NCBI GenBank assembly: GCA_024636135.1
Contig: JAGXHP010000144.1
Location: forward strand, 1-37,970
Source: Chloroflexota bacterium
Lineage (GTDB): Bacteria; Chloroflexota; Limnocylindria; QHBO01
Direction: 5' to 3'
DNA length: 37,970 bases
The first letter of the stretch is position 1, and the number at the start of each line of letters is the position of its first letter. The notes below the pieces were generated by a model that did no database searches, was not told the DNA's origin, and was given only the letters and a program-made list of their open reading frames with translations. Of the stretch, positions 8,116 to 37,970 are shown one piece after another. The translations under genes were made by a program, and so were the position numbers.

Positions 8116-9006
8116 TCAGTCTTGCAGGTCGAGGCGCAGAACACGGTCGAGGCCGGCGAGGTCCGGCACGATCCCGACCTTCGCGCCGACGGGACCGAGG
8201 GCGGCGATCTCCGCGGCCTGGCCCACCCCGATCTCCAGGAGGACGGTGGCGTTCCGAGCTGCCCGCGACGGCAGATCGGCGAGCAGCCGGCGCAGCACCG
8301 CGAGCCCATCGGGGCCACCATCCAGCGCGATCCGAGGCTCGAATCCCAGCGCACTCGCTCGGGCGTCGACCTCGTCACTGGCGACGTACGGCAGGTTGGC
8401 GATGACGAGATCCGGCCGCGGCAGGGACGCGCCCGCGGGGTCGAGCAGATCGGCGCAGGCGAGGGTCACGAGGTCGGTTGCCGCGTGATCGACGAGGTTC
8501 TCCGCGGCAAGCTCCAGCGCGTCCGGAGAGAGATCGCTTGCCACGAGCCGGATGCGGCCCAGGCGAATCGCCTGCCGAAACCGGGTCGCGATCGCGAGCG
8601 TCACGGCGCCCGTGCCGGTCGCGACCTCCCATGCGACGATCGGCGCGTCATCGCGTGCCAGCCGTCGCTCGAGCTCGGTGATCGCGGCTTCGGCGAGCAA
8701 CTCCGTCTCGGGACGTGGAATGAGCGCCCGATGATCGGTGCGGATCCGCAGCGACTGCCAGTCACGGAAGCCGCGGATGTAGGCGATCGGCTCGCCGGCG
8801 GCACGCCGGTCCACCACCGCGCGCAGACGAGCGACGACCTCGGGGCCGAGCGACGCCTCCGGGTGGGCGAGCACCCAGGACCGATCGCGTCCGGTGACGT
8901 GCGCGACGAGCACCTCGGCATCGAGCCGCGGGCTGGGCGAGCCGGAGGACCGCAGCCGTTCCGCGGCATCGATCACCGCGATCCCGACCGCGTCAGTCGG
9001 GGGCAT
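8116..9006 (-). CDS. prmC: Release factor glutamine methyltransferase
   Basis: [31 protein letters not shown] motif, [18 protein letters not shown]; follows prfA. Confidence 0.95.
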
Positions 9007-10072
9007 CGGCGCCGATCTCCGCCAGTCGCCGGGCCTGGTCCGCCTCAATGAGCGGCTCGATGACGCGATCCAGGTCGCCCTCCAGCAGGCCGGGCAGGCT
9101 GTGCACCGTCAGCCCAATGCGGTGGTCGGTCACCCGATCATCGGGGAAGTTGTAGGTGCGGATCTTCTCGCTCCGCTCGCCGGAGCCGACCTGCGATCGA
9201 CGCTCGTCGCCACGCTCGGCCGCCAGGCGCTCCTGCTCCATCTCGAGGAGGCGGGCACGGAGAACGCTCATCGCCTTGGCGCGGTTCTTGTGCTGACTCT
9301 TCTCGTCCTGGATGGCGACCATGAGGCCCGTCGGCAGGTGGGTGATGCGCACCGCCGAGTCCGTGGTGTTCACCGACTGTCCGCCGGGACCGCTCGACCG
9401 ATAGACATCGATGCGGAGGTCCTTCTCGTCGATCTGGACCTCGACCTCGTCGGCCTCGGGAAGCACGGACACCGTGGCCGTCGACGTGTGGATGCGGCCC
9501 GATGCCTCGGTCACCGGCACGCGCTGAACCCGATGCACACCCGACTCGAACTTCAGCCGCGAGTAGGCGCCATCGCCGCGGACCTCGGCGATGACCTCCT
9601 TGAGGCCGCCGGAGCCACTGTCCGAGGTCGACAGGACCTCGACCTTCCATCGCCGGCGCTCCGCGTAGCGGGCATACATGCGGTAGAGGTCGGCCGCGAA
9701 CAGCGACGCCTCGTCGCCGCCGGTTCCCGCCCGCACCTCGACGATGACGTCGCGATCGTCGTTCGGGTCGCGCGGCACGAGATGAACGCGAAGGTCCTCC
9801 TCGATCGCCTCAGCCCGCGCCGTGAGCCGGTCGATCTCCTCGCGGGCCATCGTCCGCATCTCATCGTCGGGATCGTCGGCCATCGCCCGCGCGCCATCGA
9901 GCTCCTCGCGGACCGAGCGCCACTTGCGCAGCATCGCGACCACGGGCTCGAGCCGGGAGAGCTCGCGACCGAAGTCGGCAAGGGCCGACGGGTTGGCAGC
10001 CGCCTCCGGCGTCGACATCTGGCGGCCGATCTCCTCGTAGCGCGCCTCTAGCTCGGCGAGCCGGTCGATCAT
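8993..10072 (-). CDS. prfA: Peptide chain release factor 1
   Basis: [21 protein letters not shown] (PxT motif), GGQ motif; ATG at 10072 overlaps the upstream stop. Confidence 0.98.
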
Positions 10073-10968
10073 GCTCGTTGGGCGGCGGCAGCCTCGCGGT
10101 CGGAGGCCAGGCACGACTCCAGGCTGGCGATGCTGACCTCGAGCATCGCGCGGTCCGGTGGCCGGGTCGTCAGCGACTGGAGCCACAGCCCGGGCGCGTA
10201 GAACGCGCGGACGAGTGGACTGCCGTAGTTCCGCGCTCCGAACCGCACGAGCTCATACGCAAACCCGGCGATGATCGGCACGAGCACGATCCGAGACAGG
10301 AAGAGGAGCGGCAGGGGCACCCCGGAGCGCGGGACGAGGCTGAAGAAGAAGATGCTGATCACCACCACGATGAGGATGAACGTCGTGCCGCATCGGGTGT
10401 GGGCCGTGCCGAAGGCGTCAACCTCGTCCGGGGTGAGGGGGCGGTCGGCCTCGTAGGCGCTGATCGCCTTGTGCTCGGCCCCGTGATAGGCGAACACGCG
10501 CTTGATGTCGCTCATCATGCCGATGAGGGCGATGTAGGCGATGAAGATCACGAGCCGAATCAGCCCCTCGACCCCGTTGGCGAGGATGTCACTGTCCGTG
10601 GCGCCCTCGGCGAACGTCGAGAGGAACAGGGGCAACAGGAAGAACAGCCCGATGGCGAAGCTCAGGCTGATGATGACGGTCAGGACGATCGTGCCCCGTC
10701 CGAGCTCGATGTCCTCGCCCTCGGCTGCGATGGAGGCGGACCGCATCAGCATCCGGGTCCCGATGACCAGCGTCTCGTACAGCAGGAACATCCCCCGCAG
10801 TAGCGGGATCCTGATGAGCCGACGATCAGCCGACAGCGCGGCCGGCAGCGCCTCGGACATCGTCTGGATCTCGCCCGACGGCGGACGCACGCTCATGGCG
10901 ACCGTTGTTCGGCCGCGCATCATGACCCCCTCGATCAGGGCCTGGCCGCCGTAGAAGAAATCGGGCAT
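10069..10968 (-). CDS. DUF1385 family membrane protein (putative metalloprotease)
   Basis: [47 protein letters not shown]; usual position between rpmE and prfA. Confidence 0.9.
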
Positions 10969-26940: not shown

Positions 26941-27042
26941 GGGCGGACCCTCCAGCCTCGAATCATGTCGCTCGCCCGCTCGGCGGTCAAGGTGTGGCGC
27001 CGCAAGGAGCGGGCGGCGCATCGGGCTATACTCGGCCTCCCG

Positions 27043-29916
27043 ATGTTCAAGTTCCTGTCCCGCCTGGGGGACTCCAACGACCGCGAGGTCCGCGGACTCG
27101 AGCCGCTCGTCGAGCGCATCAATGCGCTCGAGCCGGAGATCCAGGCCCTATCCGATGCCGAGCTCGCCGGGCAGACCGATGCGCTCCGCGGCCGGTTGCG
27201 CGAATCGATCGGCGAGATCATGGTCCCGATCGAGGCCCGCGAGAGCGATCCCGACGCGGACGCGGCCGAGTCAGCGCTGGCCGGCGCCGATGCGGCTCGG
27301 CTGGCGGACCAACTGAAGCGACAGCGCGAAGCGGAGCTTGCACGGATCAACGCCGCGCTCGAGGAGATCCTGCCGGAGGCCTTCGCGTCGGTCCGCGAGG
27401 CGATGGTCCGGGCACTCGGCAAGCGGCATTACGACGTCCAGCTCATGGGCGGCATCGTGCTCCACCGCGGCGCGATCGCGGAGCAGCGCACGGGCGAGGG
27501 CAAGACCTTCGTGGCACCCCTGGCGGCATTCCTCAATGCGCTCGTTGGTCGGGGCGTGCACGTCGTCACGACGAACGACTACCTCGCCAAGCGCGACGCG
27601 CAGTGGATCGGCGCCGTATTCCATCGGCTCGGGATGAGCGCCGGAAGCGTCCAGCATGCCGGCGCCTTCGTCTACGACCCGGACTTCCCCGCGACCGACG
27701 AGCGACTGCGCGACCTGCGGCCCGTATCGCGCCAGGAGGCATACGCGGCTGACGTCACCTACGGGACGAACAACGAGTTCGGATTCGACTTCCTGCGCGA
27801 CAACCTGGTCATCGAGCTTCCCGCGCGGGGGCAGCGCGGCCACTACTTCGCGATCGTGGACGAGGTCGACAACATCCTCATCGACGAGGCTCGGACGCCG
27901 CTCATCATCAGCGGCAATGCCGAGGAGTCGGCCGACAAGTACCTCCAGTTCGCCCAGCTCGTCCCTCGGCTGACGGCCGAGGAGGACTACGTCGTCGACG
28001 AGAAGTTCAAGCAGGTGGCGATCAGCGAGGCCGGCACGGACAAGATGGAGAAGTGGCTGGGCGTCGACAACATGTTCGCCGACGACTTCAGCCTGGCCCG
28101 GCACCTCGAGCAGGCGCTCAAGGCCCAGGTCCTGTATCAGAAGGACCGCGACTACGTCGTCAAGGACGGCGAGGTCGTCATCGTCGACGAGTTCACCGGC
28201 CGGCTCATGCCGGGGCGCCGCTGGTCGGAGGGGCTGCACCAGGCAGTCGAGGCCAAGGAGGGCGTCGCGGTCCGCAACGAGCAGCGCACCCTCGCCACAG
28301 TCACGTTCCAGAACTACTTCCGGATGTACGACAAGCTCGCCGGCATGACCGGCACCGCCGAGACAGAGGCGGAGGAGTTCGCGAAGATCTACGGGCTCGA
28401 GGTCGTCGTCATCCCGACGCACCGCGAGATGATCCGCGCCGACTACGCCGACCTCATCTACGCCACCCAGAAGGGGAAGTGGAACGCGGTCGTCGACGAG
28501 ATCGCGGAGGAGCACGAGAAGGGACGACCCGTCCTGGTGGGCACGATCAGCGTCGAGATCAGCGAGATGCTCGGCGACATGCTGAAGCGCCGCGGCATCA
28601 AGCACAACGTCCTCAACGCGAAGCTCCACGAGAAGGAGGCCGAGGTCATCGCGCAGGCCGGCCGATCCGGCGCGGTCACGATCGCGACGAACATGGCGGG
28701 CCGCGGCACGGACATCCTGTTGGGCGGCAACCCGGAGGTGCTCGCCACCGAGATGCTCCACAAGCAGGGCACGAACGTCCTCGAGGCGACGCCGGAGCAG
28801 TACGCGGCGGCGCTTGCCCAGGCCGAGGCGCAGTGCGCGGCGGACAAGGAGCGAGTCATCGAGGCCGGCGGCCTGCACATCGTGGGGACCGAGCGCCACG
28901 ACGCGCGCCGCATCGACAACCAGCTCCGCGGCCGTGCCGGTCGCCAGGGTGATCCCGGCAGCTCCCGGTTCTACCTGTCGCTCGAGGACGACCTCATGCG
29001 TCGCTTCGCCAGCGACCGCGTCCAGAGCATCATGCGCACCCTCGGCTTCACCGATGACACCGCGCTCGAGTCGAAGATGGTGAGCAAGACCATCGAGAAC
29101 GCCCAGACCCGGGTCGAGGGCTACAACTTCGACACGCGCAAGCACGTGGTCGAGTACGACGACGTCATCAACCGCCAGCGCGAGACGATCTACCGCGAGC
29201 GCGATCGCATCCTGCGATCCTCAAACCTTGGGCCGACCGTCGAGGCCATGCTCGACGAGGAGCTGGCCGCGCTGGTGGCCGAGCACACCGCAGCCGAGTA
29301 CGCCTCGGAGTGGAATCGCGACGGGCTGAAGACGCAGCTGGTCACGATGGCGCCGACACTGACCGATGCGGACCTGCGGGTCATCGACGAAGCGGCCGAC
29401 CCGGCGATCCTGGTCGAGACGCTGACCGAGACGATTCGGGAACGCTACGAGGCAAAGCGCCGCGAGGTCGGGGACGACGGGATCGGCGTGCTCGAGCGGC
29501 TCGTGCTGCTGCGCGTCATCGACTCGCTGTGGGTCGAGCACCTGACCGCGGTCGATGACATGCGGCGCGGCATCGGCCTGCGAGCCTACAGCCAGCGCGA
29601 CCCGTTGAACGAGTTCAAGATCGAGGCCTACCGAATGTTCGACGAGCTGAAGTCGACCATCCGCCACGACGTCACCCACACGATCTTCCGCGTCACCGTC
29701 CATGCCCATGCGCCTCAGCCGCGCCCCATGGCGCGCAACGTGGTCGAGGGCCGGGCCGCTGTCGCCGCGACCGCGTCGGCGGGAGGCGCGGCCACCGCGG
29801 TTGCGACGGCCGACAACGGGGCAGCCGCGCCCGCCCGCTCCGGGCCGAAGCTCGGCCGCAACGAGCCGTGCTACTGCGGCTCCGGCAAGAAGTTCAAAAA
29901 GTGCCACGGGGCGTGA
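27043..29916 (+). CDS. secA: Preprotein translocase ATPase SecA
   Basis: [59 protein letters not shown], terminal [19 protein letters not shown]; ATG 27043 after TATACT. Confidence 0.98.
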
Positions 29917-30419
29917 GCGAAGCAGCGATCCAGCCCGTCGAACAGACGCTCGACCTCGGCGTTGAGGCCGGTGACGCCTTCGCGGTGTTCACCGACGGGC
30001 TCCGCACCTGGTGGCCGTCCGAGGCGACCTGGTCAGGGGCCGGTCTGGAGTCGATCGGCATCGAGCCGTTCGTTGGGGGCTTCTGCTTCGAACGGGGCCC
30101 GCACGGCCTGCGGCTCGATTGGGGCCGGGTCACCGGTTGGGAGCCACCGCGCCGGCTCCACTTCGCCTGGCTCATCGGCGCGGATCGGACGCCCGAGCCG
30201 AATCCTGCGCATGCCAGCGATGTCGAGGTGACGTTCGAGCCGATAGCGCGCGGGTCGCGGCTGACGCTCGTGCATCGCGGGTTCGAACGGCACCGCGGCG
30301 ACGGGCGGGCATACCGCGCGGCCATGGCCGGGGAGGAGGGCTGGCCGATGCTGCTCGCACGCTACCGCGCCGTGGTCGTGCGTCGCACCGAGGCTCCGTG
30401 GGAGGGCCTGACGACCTAG
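29913..30419 (+). CDS. SRPBCC/AHSA1-like protein
   Basis: [56 protein letters not shown]; GTGA overlap with secA. Confidence 0.85.
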
Positions 30420-30425
30420 GCGGCG

Positions 30426-30563
30426 TCAGCCATCGTCGGGACTCTCCCCGCCGGATTCGTCGCTTCCGTAGCGCTTGCGGCGGCGTTGCCAGAGGCGCAG
30501 CGGGAACAGTAGGACGGTCGCGATGGCGATGATCCCCACGATGAACAGGAACGGGTCGGGCAT
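30426..30563 (-). CDS. 45-aa single-pass membrane protein (not in the ORF track)
   Basis: MPDPFLFIVGIIAIATVLLFPLRLWQRRRKRYGSDESGGESPDDG: hydrophobic helix, basic patch, acidic tail; CATGAT -10 six nt upstream. Confidence 0.65.
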   Translation of the reverse strand: MPDPFLFIVGIIAIATVLLFPLRLWQRRRKRYGSDESGGESPDDG

Positions 30564-30602
30564 GGCCCCATCATGGCCGATGGATGGGAAGATCGTGCGG
30601 GG

Positions 30603-30630
30603 TTGCGATATCTGAGCGAGTCGCTACGAT
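30603..30630 (+). promoter_or_regulatory. Putative promoter for the Cys-rich gene and prfB
   Basis: TTGCGA, 16 nt, TACGAT; followed by a 10-bp 5' UTR stem (30643-30676). Confidence 0.55.
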
Positions 30631-30695
30631 GAGCGCAACGATCGTCGCGAGGTCAACTCCGGGCCCCCTCGCGATGCCCATAGGTGGAGGGATTC

Positions 30696-30995
30696 GTGAA
30701 GCAACTGACCGCACCACCGAGAGCCTCTGTTCCGCTCCCCGTCAGCACGGCGGCTCACCTTCCACCGGTCACTCGCTTCCGAGATCCAGAGCTCCCCTAC
30801 GAAGACCTCATCATGTGTGAGCGCGACTGCATGCGCTGCACATACGCCGCGACGCTGAACTGCGACGGCAACTGTGGGGTGTGCCCCCGCCAGAGCTATT
30901 GCCCGTGCGTGAACCCGGCCAAGGTGCGGGCCAAGGGCAACCGGCTGGCCGACATGGCCGAGCTCCCGATGGCGGTGTCGATTGGACACAATTAG
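30696..30995 (+). CDS. 99-aa Cys-rich protein with two CxxxCxxC motifs and CPC
   Basis: GGTGGAGG SD and GTG; CERDCMRC...CDGNCGVC...CPC; GC-rich third codon positions. Confidence 0.8.
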   Translation: MKQLTAPPRASVPLPVSTAAHLPPVTRFRDPELPYEDLIMCERDCMRCTYAATLNCDGNCGVCPRQSYCPCVNPAKVRAKGNRLADMAELPMAVSIGHN

Positions 30996-32110
30996 GGACG
31001 AGGCCCAGCGCCTGGCGCGCCTCGTGACCGAGACGTCGGTGCGCCTTTGACCACTCCAGCAAAGAGGCCGAGCTCGCCGAGCTGACCGAGCGCTCCGCCG
31101 ATCCCGACCTGTGGGATGACCCCGCCGCGGCGCAGTCGACCATGCGTCGCGCCGAGGAGCTGCGGTCGGAGATCGACCTGTGGCAGTCGCTCGGCGAGCG
31201 TGCCAACGGCCTGGCCGAGATCGCAGAGATGGCGGCGGCCGATCCCGACGAGGCGGAGACCCTGCGGCCCGACCTCGAGCGGGATCTCGCCGCGCTCCAG
31301 GCCGACTGGGCGCGACTCGAGCAGCAGCTCCTCCTGGGCGAGCCGTTCGACGAGCGGGGGGCGATTGTCTCGATCCACGCCGGCGCCGGGGGAACCGAGT
31401 CCCAGGACTGGGCCGAGATGCTCCTGCGCATGTACCTGCGCTGGGCGGAGCGTCACCGCTTCAAGACCGAGATCCTGGAGGCGACCGAGGGCGAGGGCGC
31501 GGGGCTCAAGAGCGTCAGCTTCACCGTCGACGGGCGCTGGGTCTACGGTCAGCTGCGCAGTGAGCGAGGCGTCCATCGGCTCGTGCGGATCAGTCCGTTC
31601 GACTCCCAGAAGCGCCGCCACACGACCTTTGCGCTGGTCGAGATCATGCCGGAGGTCCCCGAGGACGCGGCGGTCGAGATCGACGAGAAGGATCTCCGGG
31701 TCGACACCTACCGCGCCAGCGGGGCCGGTGGCCAGCACGTCAACAAGACCGACTCGGCGGTACGCCTGACGCATGAGCCGACCGGGATCGTCGTCGCCGT
31801 GCAGAGCGAGCGGAGCCAGCATCAGAACCGCGAGCGCGCCATGGCCGTCCTCCGCGCCCGACTCATCGAGCGGCAGGAGGAGGAGCGCGAGGCGGAGATG
31901 GCACGCCTGCGCGGCGAGCACGTCGAGGCTGGCTGGGGCAACCAGATTCGGAGCTACGTCCTCCAGCCGTACACGATGGTGAAGGACCTGCGAACCGGGG
32001 TCGAGACCTCGAATCCGACCGCGGTGCTCGACGGTGAGCTTGATGCCTTCATCGACGGCTACCTTCGCTCCCGCGTCGGCCAGGCCGAGGGCTCGACGCC
32101 GGCCGGATGA
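30982..32110 (+). CDS. prfB: Peptide chain release factor 2, programmed +1 frameshift at CTT-TGA-C (31045-31051)
   Basis: Segment from TTG 30982 (MDTIRDEAQRLARLVTETSVRL) ends CTT TGA C; the +1 frame continues DHSSKEAEL...LWDDP...GAGGTESQDW...LVRISPFD (SPF)...GGQHVN. Confidence 0.95.
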
Positions 32111-32135
32111 ACTCGGCTACCATCGCGCCAAGCCG

Positions 32136-32873
32136 ATGACATCCCTTCTGCGCCGCCGGGCGCGCACCGATTCAGCCGAGGCGTCGGTCATCCGCATGGT
32201 CGATGTCGGCATGACCTACCCGAACGGCAAGGTCGCCCTGGCCGACGTCAGCGTCGAGATCCCGGCGGGCGACTTCGTGTTCCTGGTCGGGCCGTCGGGG
32301 GCCGGCAAGAGCACGTTCATCCGGCTCCTCATCCGCGAGCAGATTCCGACCGCCGGCAGCGTGCGGGTCGCCGGGCGCGAGCTCGTTCGCATGCGGCGAC
32401 GCCACGTCCCGGGGCTGCGCCGCCGGATCGGCATCGTGTTCCAGGACTTCCGGCTTCTGCCGAACAAGACGGTGTGGGAGAACGTCGCCTTCGCGCTCGA
32501 CGTGACCGGCGCGCCCGGGACGTTGGTCCGACAGCGCGTCCCGCAGCTGCTCAGCCTGGTCGGGCTCCAGGATCACGCCCACCACCTGCCGACCCAGCTG
32601 TCCGGCGGAGAACAGCAGCGCACGGCGATCGGGCGGGCCCTGGTCCACGATCCGGCCATCCTCATCGCCGATGAGCCGACGGGCAACCTCGACCCCGTCA
32701 CCAGCTGGGAGATCATCCAGCTCCTGATCCAGATCAACCAGCTCGGCACCACGGTCCTCATGGCGACCCACAACCAGGAGATCGTGAACGCCATGCGCCG
32801 CCGGGTGCTGGCCCTCGAGGGCGGGCACCTCGTGCGCGACGAGGCGGCCGCGGCCTACGAGCGGGAGTACTGA
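32136..32873 (+). CDS. ftsE: Cell division ATP-binding protein FtsE
   Basis: [51 protein letters not shown]. Confidence 0.95.
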
Positions 32874-32877
32874 GCCG

Positions 32878-33771
32878 ATGCCCTTCGCGCGCTTCATCGG
32901 CTTCAGCATCGTCCGCGCCTGGCAGGGCTTCTGGCGCAACGCGATGATGAGCCTGGCCGCCACCGCCACCGTCATCCTGATGCTCGTCCTCCTGTCGGGG
33001 CTGTTCATTGTCATCGCCGGGCTCAACTCCGGCCTCGAGTTCATCGAGAGCAAGGTGGCCGTCACCGCCCAGCTGGTCGACGACCTGCCGGTCGCCGACC
33101 GGATGCAGCTCGTCTCCGAGGTCGAGGCCTTTCCGCAGGTGGCCTCGGTGGCCTACGTCTCACCGGCCGAGGCCATGGAGCGGCTCCGCGCCTCGTATCG
33201 CGAGGCGGGGCAGGAGCTCGACACGGGCGGCGCCACGATCCGGCTGTTCGCCAGCCTGGAGATCAACCTCGTCGACCCGAATGCGGCCGGGGACGTGGGC
33301 GAGTTCCTGGCCTCCCACGACGACGTGGCGCGCGTTCTGACCAAGCAGGCCGAGTACGACACGCTGCTCGGCATCATCAACGTCATCCGGACGGTCGGCC
33401 TGGTCGGCATCGGCCTCGTGGGGCTGACCGTGCTGTTCATGATCATCAACACGATCCGGATCGCGGTCTACAGCCGGGCAGGCGAGATCGAGATCATGCG
33501 GCTGGTCGGCGCATCGGACTCGTTCATCCGCTGGCCGTTCATCCTCGAGGGCGTGCTGTGCGGACTGATCGGCGCGCTCGTGACGATCGTCCTGGTGGCG
33601 ATCGTGTGGGACCCGATCCAGCCGGCGATGGTGACGATCTTCCAGATGCCGACCGCCGTCAGCGCCCGCTTCCTCACCACGCTGTCGATGATCCTGCTCG
33701 GCGCCGGCCTGGGCGTCGGGGCGCTCGGCTCCTGGATCAGCGTGCGGTCCTACCTCTCCGCCGCCCGATGA
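32878..33771 (+). CDS. ftsX: Cell division permease FtsX
   Basis: WRNAMMSLA, INTIRIAVYSRAGEIEIMRLVGASDSFIRWPFILEG, four helices. Confidence 0.95.
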   Translation: MPFARFIGFSIVRAWQGFWRNAMMSLAATATVILMLVLLSGLFIVIAGLNSGLEFIESKVAVTAQLVDDLPVADRMQLVSEVEAFPQVASVAYVSPAEAMERLRASYREAGQELDTGGATIRLFASLEINLVDPNAAGDVGEFLASHDDVARVLTKQAEYDTLLGIINVIRTVGLVGIGLVGLTVLFMIINTIRIAVYSRAGEIEIMRLVGASDSFIRWPFILEGVLCGLIGALVTIVLVAIVWDPIQPAMVTIFQMPTAVSARFLTTLSMILLGAGLGVGALGSWISVRSYLSAAR

Positions 33772-33852
33772 CCCACGGCTCTCGGTGCATAAGGAAACGT
33801 AACCTGCCCGCGATCTCGCCCAACGGGGAGCGACGCTAGACTTCACGCCCCG

Positions 33853-35211
33853 ATGAACGAGCACGTGCCCCCAGCCCCCGCCCCGCGGCGGGGCGGATCG
33901 ATTCCCTGGATCATCTCCATCGCCCTGGCGGCGGTGGTCGGTGCCCTGCTGTTCGCCGGCGGGTTTCTCGCGGGCGGCGGCTCCGAAGCCGGTGGTTGTG
34001 CGGCCCCCGACGATGCCTTCGCCGCGTTCTGCGAGGCCTACGATCAGCTCCAGAACGACTATGTCGATGAGCTCGACCCCGACGCGCTCGTCGAGGGCGC
34101 GATCCGCGGCATGTTCCAGTACGGCGTCGCCGATCCGTACTCCGGCTACATGCCCCCGGAGCAGTATCGCCAGGCGCTCGGCGACCTTTCCGGCGCCTTC
34201 AGCGGCATCGGGGCCGAGATGGCGATCCGCAACACCCGGGATGCCGCGGACCTTGCCGCGTGTACCGAGCTGAGCGACGTCTGCCGCCTGATCGTCGTCG
34301 CGCCGTTGTCGGACTCGCCGGCCGAGCGGGCCGGGCTCCAGACGGGCGACTTCGTCGTGGCCGTGGATGGGACGTCGGTCAACGGCACGACCATGGAGGA
34401 CCAGATCGGCCAGATCCGCGGGGAATCGGGCACCGACGTCACGCTGACGGTCCTGCGCGATGACGGCGAGCCATTCGACATCACGATCACGCGCGCCGAG
34501 ATCACGATCCAGGAGGTCGAAGCACGGATGATCGACGGGCACATCGGCTACATCGGCCTCAACCAGTTCTCGGCGCCGGCCGCCGACCAGTTCCGTGATG
34601 CGCTCGCCGACCTGATCGACGAGGGCGCCGACCAGGTCGTGTTCGACCTCCGCGACAACCCCGGCGGCTACATCGATGCGGCGCAGCAGATCGCCAGCCA
34701 GTTCGTCGACGACGGGCTGATCTTCACGCAGGAGTCGGCCGGCGACGACGTCCGCGAGTGGCCGGCAACCGGCGACGGCGTGGCAACTGATCGCGAGATT
34801 CCGGTCGTGGTGCTCATCAACGGCGGGTCTGCCTCGGCATCCGAGATCGTCGCGGCGGCGCTCCAGGAGAGCGGACGCGCGACCCTCATCGGCGAGCCAT
34901 CATTCGGAAAGAACACGGTACAGGTCTGGAGCCGGCTCGAGAACGAGGGCGGGGTCCGCATCACGATCAGCCGATGGTTCACGCCGCAGCACAACAGCGT
35001 TGCGCCCGACGGGATCCAGCCCGACGTCGACGCGGCACGCACCGCGGAGACGCCGCCGGAGGAGGATCCGGTCCTCGACGCCGCCATCGCCTTCCTCGGC
35101 GATCAATCCGTGGCCGACGATCCCTTGACGCCGAAGCCGTCCGGTTCGCCATCCGCGGGGCTTCCGGGAGCGGTCGTCGTGGGCGTTGTGGGCGCTCGAC
35201 CCATCTGCTAG
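33853..35211 (+). CDS. ctpA: S41A C-terminal processing peptidase with PDZ domain
   Basis: N-terminal membrane helix, DPYSGY, FSGIGA, SPAERAGL, DLRDNPGG, SASASEI (catalytic Ser), FGKNTVQ (catalytic Lys). Confidence 0.93.
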   Translation: MNEHVPPAPAPRRGGSIPWIISIALAAVVGALLFAGGFLAGGGSEAGGCAAPDDAFAAFCEAYDQLQNDYVDELDPDALVEGAIRGMFQYGVADPYSGYMPPEQYRQALGDLSGAFSGIGAEMAIRNTRDAADLAACTELSDVCRLIVVAPLSDSPAERAGLQTGDFVVAVDGTSVNGTTMEDQIGQIRGESGTDVTLTVLRDDGEPFDITITRAEITIQEVEARMIDGHIGYIGLNQFSAPAADQFRDALADLIDEGADQVVFDLRDNPGGYIDAAQQIASQFVDDGLIFTQESAGDDVREWPATGDGVATDREIPVVVLINGGSASASEIVAAALQESGRATLIGEPSFGKNTVQVWSRLENEGGVRITISRWFTPQHNSVAPDGIQPDVDAARTAETPPEEDPVLDAAIAFLGDQSVADDPLTPKPSGSPSAGLPGAVVVGVVGARPIC

Positions 35212-35214
35212 CAT
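35206..35214 (+). promoter_or_regulatory. Extended -10 (TGcTAGCAT) overlapping the ctpA stop codon
   Basis: Same TGn-TANNAT layout as the tmRNA promoter (TGcTAGAAT). Confidence 0.55.
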
Positions 35215-35244
35215 CGCCGGCAACGAAAGGAGGTGGTGTTGCTG

Positions 35245-35286
35245 ATGGATAGTTCCAAGCACGCCACCACCGAGGCAGTGGCCTAA
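35245..35286 (+). CDS. Micro-ORF MDSSKHATTEAVA (in-frame TTG at 35239 would add 2 aa)
   Basis: Perfect SD AAAGGAGGTG at 35226-35235, in-frame run GTG TTG CTG ATG, TAA stop, hairpin downstream. Confidence 0.55.
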   Translation: MDSSKHATTEAVA

Positions 35287-35310
35287 CACAGCTTCGCGTG
35301 GTGTAGCGAC

Positions 35311-35343
35311 GGAGGAGCCGGCCGAATGCGGCCGGCTCTCTCC
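35311..35343 (+). terminator. Strong hairpin upstream of smpB
   Basis: GGAG-GAGCCGGCCG-AATG-CGGCCGGCTC-T-CTCC: perfect 10-bp stem with a 4-bp extension; no long U-tract. Confidence 0.6.
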
Positions 35344-35384
35344 ATGTCCGCCCCGATCGAACCCGCACGCTGAGCCCAGGACCG

Positions 35385-35849
35385 ATGCCCGACGAGACGA
35401 TCGCCGTCAACCGACGCGCCCGCCATGACTACACCATCGAGGACACCCTCGAGGCTGGCCTCGTGCTGACCGGGACCGAGATCAAGAGCATCCGCGAGCA
35501 CAAGGTGAACATCGCCGAGGCCTATGCCAGGGTCGACAAGGGCGAGGCCTGGCTGATCGGCGCCCACATCGCGGAGTACTCGCAGGGCAACCGCAACAAC
35601 CACGCTCCGACGCGCACGCGCAAGCTGCTGCTGCATCGCGACCAGATCGCCGAGCTCACCGGGCTGCAGTCGGCAAAGGGACTCACGATCGTCCCGCTGC
35701 GGCTCTACATCAGCCGCGGACGGGCGAAGCTCGAGCTCGGGATCGCCAAGGGCAAGAAGACCCACGACAAGCGCCGATCCATCGCCGAGCGCGACATGCG
35801 CCGCGAGCTCGATCGCGAGTCGAAGCAGGCCGGGCGCATCAAGCTCTAG
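35385..35849 (+). CDS. smpB: SsrA-binding protein SmpB
   Basis: NRRARHDYTIEDTLEAGLVLTGTEIKSIR, RTRKLLLH, GLTIVPLRLY, GKKTHDKR. Confidence 0.98.
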   Translation: MPDETIAVNRRARHDYTIEDTLEAGLVLTGTEIKSIREHKVNIAEAYARVDKGEAWLIGAHIAEYSQGNRNNHAPTRTRKLLLHRDQIAELTGLQSAKGLTIVPLRLYISRGRAKLELGIAKGKKTHDKRRSIAERDMRRELDRESKQAGRIKL

Positions 35850-35913
35850 GTCCTGGCGGGTCGCTTCGTCGATCGCTTGCACCCGTGGACGCACCCACGT
35901 CCCCTGCAGCTCT

Positions 35914-35927
35914 AGAACAGGTGTTCT
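35914..35927. promoter_or_regulatory. Putative LexA (SOS) box AGAAC-AGGT-GTTCT
   Basis: Matches GAAC-N4-GTTC, the operator type of Firmicutes, Actinobacteria and Chloroflexi; overlaps the predicted ssrA -35. Confidence 0.65.
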
Positions 35928-35952
35928 CATCGGCGCGTCGGTCTGCTAGAAT
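35924..35952 (+). promoter_or_regulatory. ssrA promoter
   Basis: TTCTCA, 17 nt, TAGAAT with a TG extension, 20 nt upstream of the mature tmRNA 5' end. Confidence 0.7.
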
Positions 35953-35972
35953 GGGCAGTCCAATCGGCTCGT

Positions 35973-36335
35973 GGGGATGTCAGGATTCGACAGTGCCCAG
36001 GAACCGAGAATCGCAGGTCGAGGTTGCTCGCAGGCCTCGTTAAACAGCGGGCAATTGCTGTAACTGGCAACGATAGTTACGCCTTCGCTGCTTAGGCAGT
36101 GAACATCGACGCCGTCCCCCCTCCCCGGGCGGCGAAGATGTCATTAGGGGAGGTGCGGCGTCGCCGACTCCGGTGAGTGGCGTCAAAGAGCCGAAAGGCA
36201 TCACCGGATAGCAGGCGAAGCACCCCGCCGGTCGGGGGCCCGCATTGCGAAGCGCAAGTTGGCCGGAAATACCTGTAGGAAGTTCTCGGCGACTGTGTTC
36301 TGGACGGGGAGTTCGATTCTCCCCCATCTCCACCA
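35973..36335 (+). ncRNA. ssrA: tmRNA, tag (A)GNDSYAFAA
   Basis: 5' GGGGATG..GGATTCGAC pairs with 3' CATCTCC-ACCA (G3-U), TTCGATT T-loop, resume context TAACT-GGC, tag ORF 36066-36095 ending GCT GCT TAG; next to smpB. Confidence 0.97.
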
Positions 36336-36467
36336 CTTCACCCTCGGCGGCCGCTCCGCGCCGGACTCGGCGCTGCGTCAAGCGGACCCGAGCGAGTTGA
36401 CCCGCTGTGCTACGGTCCGTCGCGGGTCGGGGGGCCCTTTTGGTCGACATGGAGGGTGTTGGATCGG

Positions 36468-37040
36468 ATGGACTTCTCGAAATTGAGCCAGACCGAAAAA
36501 CTGGCCGTCTACGGATCCGCGGCGGTCATCATCGGCGGTCTGGTGGGATACAGCTACGGACTCACCGTGCTCGCTGTGCTCGCCGCAGTCGCGATGCTCG
36601 TCATCGTCCTGCTGCCGCAGCTGTCGCCGGGCACCACCTTGCCGGGCTCCCGAGGCAGCCTGATGGTCGCCGCCGGTGGCGTGGCCGGCGTGACGATGCT
36701 GCTGGCCCTGCTCGTCGGCATCGGGCTGGTGTTCGTCAACTTCAACGTTCGCGACCTGTTCTTCCTGATCGCCGTGGTGGGCGCCGCCGTGATGGCGTGG
36801 GCTGGCTGGCAAGAGTTCCAGGCCGAGGGCGGCAAGTTCAAGGTCGGAACCTCATCGGCCTCCGAGCGGCCGGCCGCGTCCCCAGCTCCCGCGGCTACCG
36901 CAGCCGAGCCGGTAGCGGCCGAGCCGGTTGCGAGCGAGCCGGTCGCCTCCGAGCCGGTCGCGGCCGAGCCGGTAGCCGCCGAGCCCGCTGCCGCCGAGCC
37001 GGCGGCCGAGCCCACGGACGACGATCGCCCGGTCGGCTAG
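36468..37040 (+). CDS. Membrane protein with an acidic Pro/Ala repeat tail
   Basis: MDFSKLSQTEKL then about four hydrophobic helices and AWAGWQEFQAEGG; GGAGG SD. Confidence 0.8.
   Translation: MDFSKLSQTEKLAVYGSAAVIIGGLVGYSYGLTVLAVLAAVAMLVIVLLPQLSPGTTLPGSRGSLMVAAGGVAGVTMLLALLVGIGLVFVNFNVRDLFFLIAVVGAAVMAWAGWQEFQAEGGKFKVGTSSASERPAASPAPAATAAEPVAAEPVASEPVASEPVAAEPVAAEPAAAEPAAEPTDDDRPVG
36903..37013 (+). repeat. 15-bp coding tandem repeat, about 7 copies (EPVAA/EPVAS)
   Basis: GAGCCS recurs at 36906, 36921, 36936, 36951, 36966, 36981 and 36996 with synonymous variation. Confidence 0.9.
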
Positions 37041-37044
37041 AGGA

Positions 37045-37470
37045 TCAGTCCTCGGCCAGCAGCTCTCCGACGCGGCCGCGAATCATCGCGGTCGCGTCAC
37101 GTCCTTCCCCCAGCGCGCGCCCGATGCGCGTGATCGTCACGTCCGCGGCAAGACCGTCATCGACGGCATCCACCGCCTCGGCAAGGAGGCGTCGGCGGGC
37201 TGCGTCCGTCTCGTGCTCGGCGACATGGCGGACGAGTGAGCCGATGTCACCCAGCGTCGCGGCCAGCTCCTCTGGCGGCGGTTCGAGCGCCTCCTCGAAA
37301 TAGAGAATCGCAAGCGCCAGTAACTCACCCGCACCGGCGTCCGAGCGGACCCCGGTGCGCTCATCGACTCCGATGACGAGGGCGTACCCGTCGTCCAGCG
37401 TCGGCGCGAACCCCACCCACGGGCCGTCGGGCTCCAGGCGCCCGACGGCGCACGCTGCGCCTTCCATCAC
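37045..37470 (-). CDS. Hypothetical protein
   Basis: 141-aa ORF filling the gap downstream of jag, GGAG SD, protein-like composition; no family recognised. Confidence 0.65.
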   Translation of the reverse strand: MMEGAACAVGRLEPDGPWVGFAPTLDDGYALVIGVDERTGVRSDAGAGELLALAILYFEEALEPPPEELAATLGDIGSLVRHVAEHETDAARRRLLAEAVDAVDDGLAADVTITRIGRALGEGRDATAMIRGRVGELLAED

Positions 37471-37490
37471 CCGCTCCCGGGTGAGCCGCC

Positions 37491-37970
37491 CTACTCCTTG
37501 ACCTGGTTCGCCGGGAGAACGACGATCCGCCGGTTCGGCTCCACGCCGACGCTCTGGGTCCGGATCCTCGGATTCTCGAGCAGCGCCATGTGAACCACGC
37601 GGCGCTCGATGGCGGGCATCGCCTCGAGCTGAATGATCTTGCCGCTCTGGATGACGCGCTTGGCGGCCCGGTCGGCGACGTCGCGCAGCTGCTGCTCGCG
37701 GCGACCCCGATAGTTCTCGACATCGATGGCGATTCGGTGGTGCTGGCCCTCGCGTCGACCCACGATGAGGTTCACGATGTGCTGAAGGCTCGCGAGCTTC
37801 TCGCCTCGGCGGCCGATGAGCGCCCCGAGATCATCGCCCTTGACGTTGAGACGAGCGGTGTCGCCACCGCTGGCAATCTCGACGGTTCCCGACAGCTCCA
37901 TGAGGCCGAGCATCTCGGTCAGCACGGTCTGCGCCGTCTCCAGCGTCGAGCGCTCCTCCTCGCTGAGCTC
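37491..37970 (-). CDS. jag: Jag/KhpB/EloR RNA-binding protein (3' part; start is outside the window)
   Basis: KH motif LIGRRGEKLASLQ, IDVENYRGRRE, R3H motif ERRVVHMAL, SVGVEPNRRIVV. Confidence 0.93.
   Translation of the reverse strand, partial: ELSEEERSTLETAQTVLTEMLGLMELSGTVEIASGGDTARLNVKGDDLGALIGRRGEKLASLQHIVNLIVGRREGQHHRIAIDVENYRGRREQQLRDVADRAAKRVIQSGKIIQLEAMPAIERRVVHMALLENPRIRTQSVGVEPNRRIVVLPANQVKE

Follow-up and report, generated by a model that had tools for sequence, protein, structure and literature searches.

Organization of the locus

The window, that is the whole stretch of 37,970 nt that was analysed, is the entire contig C31 of a metagenome-assembled genome of 2.04 Mb which is 83% complete. 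Between secA and prfB, the gene for release factor 2 (RF2), it carries a small gene whose product has eight cysteines and is called Cys8 here; the features of this interval are summarized in Table 1. The 21 ORFs scanned between 14235 and 37925 encode PBP2, MreD, ParA, ParB, GyrB, GyrA, PRPP synthetase, SecA, RF2, FtsE, FtsX, S41 peptidase, SmpB and similar proteins. The genes prfB, ftsE, ftsX, S41 (Ctp-type) peptidase and smpB, at 31049-35849, all run in the same direction. A paralogue of RF2, presumably RF1, is encoded on the same contig by the ORF 8993-10186 (minus strand; 43% identity over 268 aa, 9047-9844), and the ORF 8116-9048 lies directly downstream of this presumed RF1 gene. Neither tmRNA nor tRNA genes were found in 30000-37970, the Rfam search of 30350-31150 returned nothing at E <= 1, and the 45-aa minus-strand ORF had no Pfam match.

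Table 1. Positions of the Cys8 gene, its upstream signals and the adjoining genes in the window
Feature	Position	Strand	Remarks
secA	26965-29916		upstream of prfB
AHSA1-like gene	29868-30419		in the secA-prfB interval
45-aa hydrophobic ORF	30426-30563	minus	one hydrophobic stretch; divergent from the putative Cys8 promoter
Promoter-like pair	30603-30630	plus	TTGCGA (30603-30608), 16-nt spacer, TACGAT (30625-30630); candidate from sequence pattern
5'-UTR hairpin	30643-30676	plus	core stem 30645-30652 with 30667-30674; MFE folds, covariation
Shine-Dalgarno sequence GGAGG	30686-30690	plus	5 nt ahead of the GTG start
Cys8 gene, 99 aa	30696-30995	plus	GTG start 30696, TAG stop 30993-30995; conservation, purifying selection
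Eight-cysteine core	30816-30908	plus	CxxxCxxC-x7-CxxxCxxC-x5-CxC; alignments A1 and A2
prfB, first frame	30982-31047	plus	TTG start, 22 codons to CTT; initial 14 nt overlap the Cys8 gene
prfB programmed +1 frameshift site	31045-31051	plus	CTT TGA C
prfB, second frame (RF2 body)	31049-32110	plus	353 aa, SPF and GGQ; PCRF and RF-1 domains; alignment A3, 27 sequences

Conservation of the Cys8 gene

Direct reading confirmed the ORF that the earlier note had described, running from GTG 30696 to TAG 30995 with 99 aa and with exactly the cysteine spacing given there. Its product has a Pro-rich N-terminal third followed by CERDCMRC-x7-CDGNCGVC-x5-CPC, which places eight cysteines within 31 residues. 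An in-frame GTG at 30684 would extend the protein to 103 aa, but this codon sits within the Shine-Dalgarno (SD) sequence, and many homologues start at an MKQ or VKQ equivalent to GTG 30696.

Homologues were collected by a word-seeded search, in which 182 of the 183 candidate cluster representatives were homologous at E <= 1. The 120 matches listed share 61-93% identity and are all unnamed or 'hypothetical', without a Pfam domain. Long matches with SecA or DUF218 domains were set aside as read-through gene calls. Among the matches listed, which come from hundreds of species, the identity of the core is 60-90% throughout its length. In the one-genome-per-species contigs at least 524 of at least 600 pattern matches encode a relative; 80 loci were retained from them, which gave 81 copies with the window, all from the family of the window (f1). 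The gene is present in one copy per genome.

The substitution pattern across the 81 copies is that of a coding sequence. In the ungapped core of 57 codons, the variable columns at codon positions 1, 2 and 3 numbered 20, 13 and 55 of 57, with entropies of 0.20, 0.15 and 0.75, and the codon differences comprised 46351 synonymous against 18383 non-synonymous ones. All eight cysteines are invariant in alignment A1 (32 sequences) as well as in alignment A2 (38 sequences from three families), so the conserved spacing that the earlier note had asked to be checked is present. Other core residues are also invariant in the 38 sequences, including I39, Y50, L54, D57, G58, P64, Y68, P70 and V72 (99-aa numbering). 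The Cys8 ORF is a genuine gene under purifying selection, far beyond a chance open frame.

The Cys8 protein and its relatives

The 38 members of A2 gave only single chance rows against Pfam and NCBIfam at E <= 10, the best with an E-value of 0.3. The best match among PDB sequences (E 1.7) was a stretch of beta-galactosidase, and ESM Atlas returned unnamed hypothetical clusters with no named match. As judged from these comparisons and from its conserved spacing, Cys8 is a previously undescribed family of small cysteine-rich proteins, in accordance with the proposal of the earlier note. The sequence shows neither a transmembrane segment nor a signal peptide and is best read as that of a small cytoplasmic protein with a conserved core of about 36 residues, comprising two CxxxCxxC motifs and a CPC. 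The number and spacing of the cysteines suggest that the core most likely forms two four-cysteine metal sites, holding Zn or Fe-S. AF2 models built on the two alignments (32 and 38 rows) had mean pLDDT values of 46.8 and 49.0, were unusable and gave no confident fold, which counts against the main reading in that the metal sites are inferred. Complex prediction for the RF2 body with the Cys8 protein and two Zn returned a score of 0.00 and no answer either way.

Several known systems share parts of this cysteine pattern. ZAS anti-sigma factors of the RsrA type carry an H/CxxxCxxC zinc and redox motif. Like them, Cys8 is small and cytoplasmic and has a CxxxCxxC spacing which may allow it to bind Zn and respond to thiol oxidation; unlike them, it has two copies of the motif and a CPC after these. 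Membership of this group was rejected as the zf-HC2 model matched none of the 38 members in Pfam and a sigma-70 family domain is absent from the 21 ORFs scanned (14235-37925). In 2[4Fe-4S] ferredoxins, CxxCxxCxxxCP occurs twice. Cys8 likewise packs eight cysteines and Cys-Pro steps into a very short domain; its spacing is reversed (CxxxCxxC) and no Fer4 match was obtained, so this candidate was also discarded. The three-cysteine spacing of radical SAM enzymes is present twice in Cys8. The Radical_SAM domain takes up about 200 aa or more and forms a partial TIM barrel, and the judgement of the earlier note that the protein is too short for this fold agrees with a length of 65-99 aa without a barrel and with the lack of any Radical_SAM match at E <= 10 among the 38 members.

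One distant relative of the Cys domain was found outside the class. The N-terminus of a 321-aa protein (L092 310-1275, minus strand, G015:C62) is a distant Cys8 domain fused to ParB_N, which was aligned to Cys8 by hhalign with a probability of 95.7% (E 9e-9) and is 39-42% identical to f1 members. It has eight cysteines, the first motif being Cx6CxxC. This fusion indicates that the core is an autonomous small domain. The fusion adjoins an SSB-like ORF on a contig of 2993 bp, possibly a mobile element, from a bin with 8% contamination; when other relatives of the fusion were sought, no protein apart from the fusion itself was recovered. Six metagenome gene calls (P0020, P0163, P0175, P0191, P0192 and P0195) appear to fuse the Cys protein to RF2. 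All are single-member clusters, explained by frame errors, an indel, a deletion or a lost stop; they were treated as assembly or sequencing variants and not accepted as Rosetta-stone evidence. These calls show the f2 Cys ORF and the RF2 body in a common frame.

Taxonomic range

An even sample of 401 Chloroflexota genomes was searched with the Cys8 family profile, and 44 matched. The genome of the window matched (1/1), as did all genomes of its family f1 (16/16) and of the families f2 (23/23) and f4 (2/2) of the same class. No match was obtained in f3 (0/4), also of this class, whose genomes are 1.1-1.4 Mb in size and 91-93% complete. The other Chloroflexota gave two matches in 355 genomes, both weak. 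The match in G166 (E 2.2e-5) was not counted as a member as it is devoid of the double cysteine motif. The gene is thus carried by 41 of the 45 Limnocylindria genomes sampled. The exhaustive HMMER search of 1.84 billion representatives returned just 53 proteins at E <= 0.001. As far as these profile matches reach, the Cys8 gene is specific to the class Limnocylindria (Chloroflexota), bar the two weak matches elsewhere in the phylum. The 80 loci are labelled mostly as Candidatus Limnocylindria, Chloroflexota or 'uncultured Chloroflexia'. Nine short contigs with a Limnocylindria-type gene pair (L015, L016, L022, L025, L043, L053, L066, L075 and L080) carry the labels Steroidobacteraceae, Thermoanaerobaculia, Angelobacter, Binatia, Zixiibacteriota or Gemmatimonadota and are probably mis-binned.

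The length of the protein varies between the families. With 73 aa in f2 and 65 aa in f4, the protein keeps the cysteine core and is devoid of the Pro-rich N-terminus of f1. The f3 locus that was read (L094 1320-1560, G269:C38) has no Cys gene: about 80 nt separate secA from prfB, which starts with GTG and contains CTT TGA C. Three further f3 loci (L095-L097) were grouped with it as having secA directly followed by prfB with its frameshift site, without the Cys gene. Either the f3 lineage lost the gene as its genomes shrank or its absence there is ancestral, and this absence indicates that RF2 can do without the Cys8 protein.

Signals upstream of the Cys8 gene

The earlier note had assigned to the ORF its own promoter, a 5' stem and a strong SD, and comparison between loci lends support to all three as predicted elements. 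In 67 of 78 loci a promoter-like pair, GGTTGnnn-N16/17-TAnnAT, precedes the ORF start by 56-68 nt. Of the others, nine show variants of the pair or a start that was assigned wrongly, and in two the upstream DNA is too short. In f2 a different pair, TTGGCn-N17-TATACT, is placed 112-151 nt upstream; six of the nine f2/f4 loci listed carry it, and these six are all f2. A generic sigma-70 promoter scan gave 0 sites and called TTGCGA-N16-TACGAT nowhere. It missed the pair because only 8 of the 12 consensus positions are matched.

In almost every locus the MFE fold has a hairpin that separates the promoter-like pair from the SD, and its stem sequence differs from locus to locus. When an 8-pair stem was scored on 73 distinct sequences, 80.8% of the cells were paired against 33-54% with a slid 3' partner, compensatory changes were present in seven of the eight pairs, and the covariation score was 0.308 against 0.07-0.13, a value which none of 500 shuffles reached; the tested stem had been picked by eye from the same 73 sequences, which favours it. 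RNAalifold on a MAFFT alignment of the 5' UTRs predicted no pairs. In more divergent f1 loci (L050-L081, columns 38-44 of alignment A4), ACGGTGA or GCGGTGA is a frequent loop sequence of the hairpin while the stem varies, and the loop may itself be a recognition site. The SD of the Cys8 gene is strong, the mean energy of the duplex with the anti-SD being -9.5 kcal/mol over 78 loci against -3.4 +/- 2.7 kcal/mol for 500 random positions of the window.

Junction with prfB and translational coupling

RF2 was found by tblastn downstream of the Cys ORF in 90 of 90 loci, so the linkage to prfB which the earlier note wished to see examined is constant, and the order SecA ... Cys, RF2, FtsE, FtsX is kept wherever the locus extends. 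The genes between secA and the ORF are variable: the AHSA1-like gene is present in 14 of the 90 loci and the small minus-strand transmembrane ORF in 39.

In the window, TTG 30982 opens the frame M-DTIRDEAQRLARLVTETSVRL, which runs up to CTT TGA C. The prfB start overlaps the end of the Cys ORF by 14 nt in 80 of the 81 f1 copies, the start codon lying 11 nt before the stop, and CTTTGA sits 52 nt beyond the first base of the ORF stop, likewise in 80 of 81. This start codon is TTG in 78 of 80 loci and GTG in the other two; the exception in geometry is L057, where an ATG follows the Cys ORF stop by 13 nt. Several f1 loci have the prfB frame open just 14-20 nt ahead of the ORF stop, so that an earlier prfB start is impossible there. 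Coding periodicity in the 17 non-overlapping codons after the start was 0.30, 0.23 and 0.83. TTG 30982, which the earlier note had regarded as the sole reasonable prfB start, lies within the last 14 nt of the ORF.

The ten f2/f4 junctions showed other arrangements, in which the stop abuts a GTG or ATG, overlaps it by 1 nt (TAGTG or TGATG) or is separated from an ATG by a spacer of 9-10 nt. Across all 91 loci of the three families the prfB start falls between 14 nt inside the ORF end and 13 nt past it, and every one of these ORFs terminates at a normal stop codon. The description of the Cys ORF, the first prfB frame and the RF2 body as three successive +1 frames (0, +1 and +2 in the window) holds for the family of the window. 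It does not extend to the other families. There the ORF either adjoins prfB directly in the same frame or has a 1-nt overlap with it, and the f2 Cys ORF is in frame with the RF2 body or with the first frame of prfB. The SD ahead of prfB is weak, with the SD-like GGTGG and a mean of -6.0 kcal/mol, and about 17% of random window positions are as good.

The frameshift site of prfB is of the usual kind, as CTT TGA C lies in frame and the RF2 body with its PCRF and RF-1 domains follows in the +1 frame; the motif is the consensus frameshift motif described in PMC3711429. According to the same source, translationally coupled pairs have a co-located and conserved upstream stop and downstream start together with a weak downstream ribosome binding site (PMC3711429). 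The Cys8-prfB pair shares both of these properties with them and differs in that its downstream gene is already autoregulated by +1 frameshifting.

The RF2 start lies within or adjoins the end of the Cys ORF; in f1 it is a TTG and its SD is weak. RF2 is therefore most likely translated by coupling. The preferred reading, held with a little more than even confidence, is that a new small and probably metal-binding protein forms the first cistron of a prfB operon. In this operon the promoter-like pair, the 5'-UTR hairpin and the strong SD would load ribosomes onto the Cys ORF, and ribosomes that have just finished it would translate RF2 by termination-reinitiation coupling, on top of which the classical +1 frameshift at CTT TGA C would act. 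The idea of the earlier note that upstream translation drives RF2 synthesis fits the stop-start geometry, the TTG start and the weak SD. Some observations weigh against this reading. The generic promoter scan detected no site, and prfB may have an internal promoter. prfB also retains its weak SD-like GGTGG, and the f3 genomes keep prfB without the Cys gene. The linkage is found in a strongly syntenic secA-prfB-ftsE-ftsX cluster of a single class and could be inherited and not selected.

Alternative explanations

This last point leads to the main rival of the coupled operon, to which a smaller though appreciable probability is given. According to it, Cys8 would be a genuine and probably metal-binding protein with a function unrelated to termination, whose gene entered the secA-prfB interval a single time, in an ancestor of the class, and was kept co-expressed by a stable housekeeping cluster. 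The unchanged gene order in 90 of 90 loci, the restriction of the family to one class and the lack of the gene in the f3 genomes are in line with such a history, and the distant Cys domain fused to ParB_N on an unrelated contig indicates that the tie to RF2 is not exclusive. The junction itself argues otherwise. It has been remodelled repeatedly (14-nt overlap, 1-nt overlap, abutting, 9-13-nt spacer) and the two genes are never more than 13 nt apart in 91 of 91 loci; the weak TTG start of prfB has been retained in f1; and the Cys-RF2 pair is constant while the AHSA1-like gene and the small transmembrane ORF come and go.

It is improbable that the ORF is a regulatory leader which works mainly through its translation, the peptide being secondary, for example if the flow of ribosomes to the prfB start were tuned by the ORF stop or by the eight Cys codons, which are near-cognate to UGA. 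Its place as first cistron overlapping the prfB start and the conserved 5'-UTR hairpin would suit a leader, and so would the stop codons. The f1 copies end in TAG (53) or TAA (28) and never in TGA (0 of 81), and TGA is thereby under-used relative to the 962 long ORFs of the genome (TGA 674, TAG 261, TAA 27), although the f1 copies are kin and the avoidance of TGA is confounded with an overlapping conserved codon of RF2. A TGA stop in f1 would turn this codon, the Arg/Lys codon 5 of RF2, into Glu, which accounts for the absence of TGA. In f2/f4, where ten loci were available, the stops are TAG in seven and TGA in three. The RF1-specific TAG of the earlier note is consequently not a general property of the loci. 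A length of 65-99 codons is also long for a leader. The core residues other than cysteine are conserved like the cysteines and the synonymous sites vary freely, which indicates that selection acts on the protein.

The earlier proposal of a RiPP-like precursor, a Cys-rich peptide modified by a radical SAM enzyme or other maturase, took up the small Cys-rich product and its CxxxCxxC-type spacing and is the least credible reading, as no radical SAM enzyme, peptidase-exporter or other maturase is present among the 21 ORFs scanned (14235-37925), no SCIFF-type, ranthipeptide-type or other NCBIfam precursor model matches any of the 38 members, the entire core and not the cysteines alone is 60-90% identical, and the gene occurs singly in each genome.

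Possible role and significance

Beyond the coupled operon, a more speculative role, considered unlikely at present, is that Cys8 in Limnocylindria serves RF2 or the terminating ribosome as a dedicated partner, made in fixed proportion through coupling, and adjusts UGA/UAA termination or RF2-dependent rescue to the metal or thiol-redox state. ArfA and BrfA are small RF2-dependent ribosome rescue factors with non-stop regulation and are not known to carry a Cys cluster. Cys8 is similar to them in its small size, lineage restriction, basic C-terminal part and possible functional tie to RF2; it differs from them in having no sequence similarity and in the normal stop codon of its ORF in 91 of 91 loci.

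The autoregulation of prfB by +1 frameshifting is a textbook case and is regarded as self-contained. The literature search found no described upstream cistron of prfB and nothing on a Cys-rich ORF linked to it. In an abundant and uncultured class of soil and freshwater bacteria, prfB is preceded by a conserved, unannotated gene which appears to feed ribosomes into it. The core of the encoded protein, about 36 residues long, is a new small cysteine domain outside any assigned family or structure. If the coupling is real, the supply of RF2 in these organisms hinges on the translation of another gene. If Cys8 also acts on RF2, it would be a new termination factor and would add a second, protein-based layer over the frameshift autoregulation of prfB.
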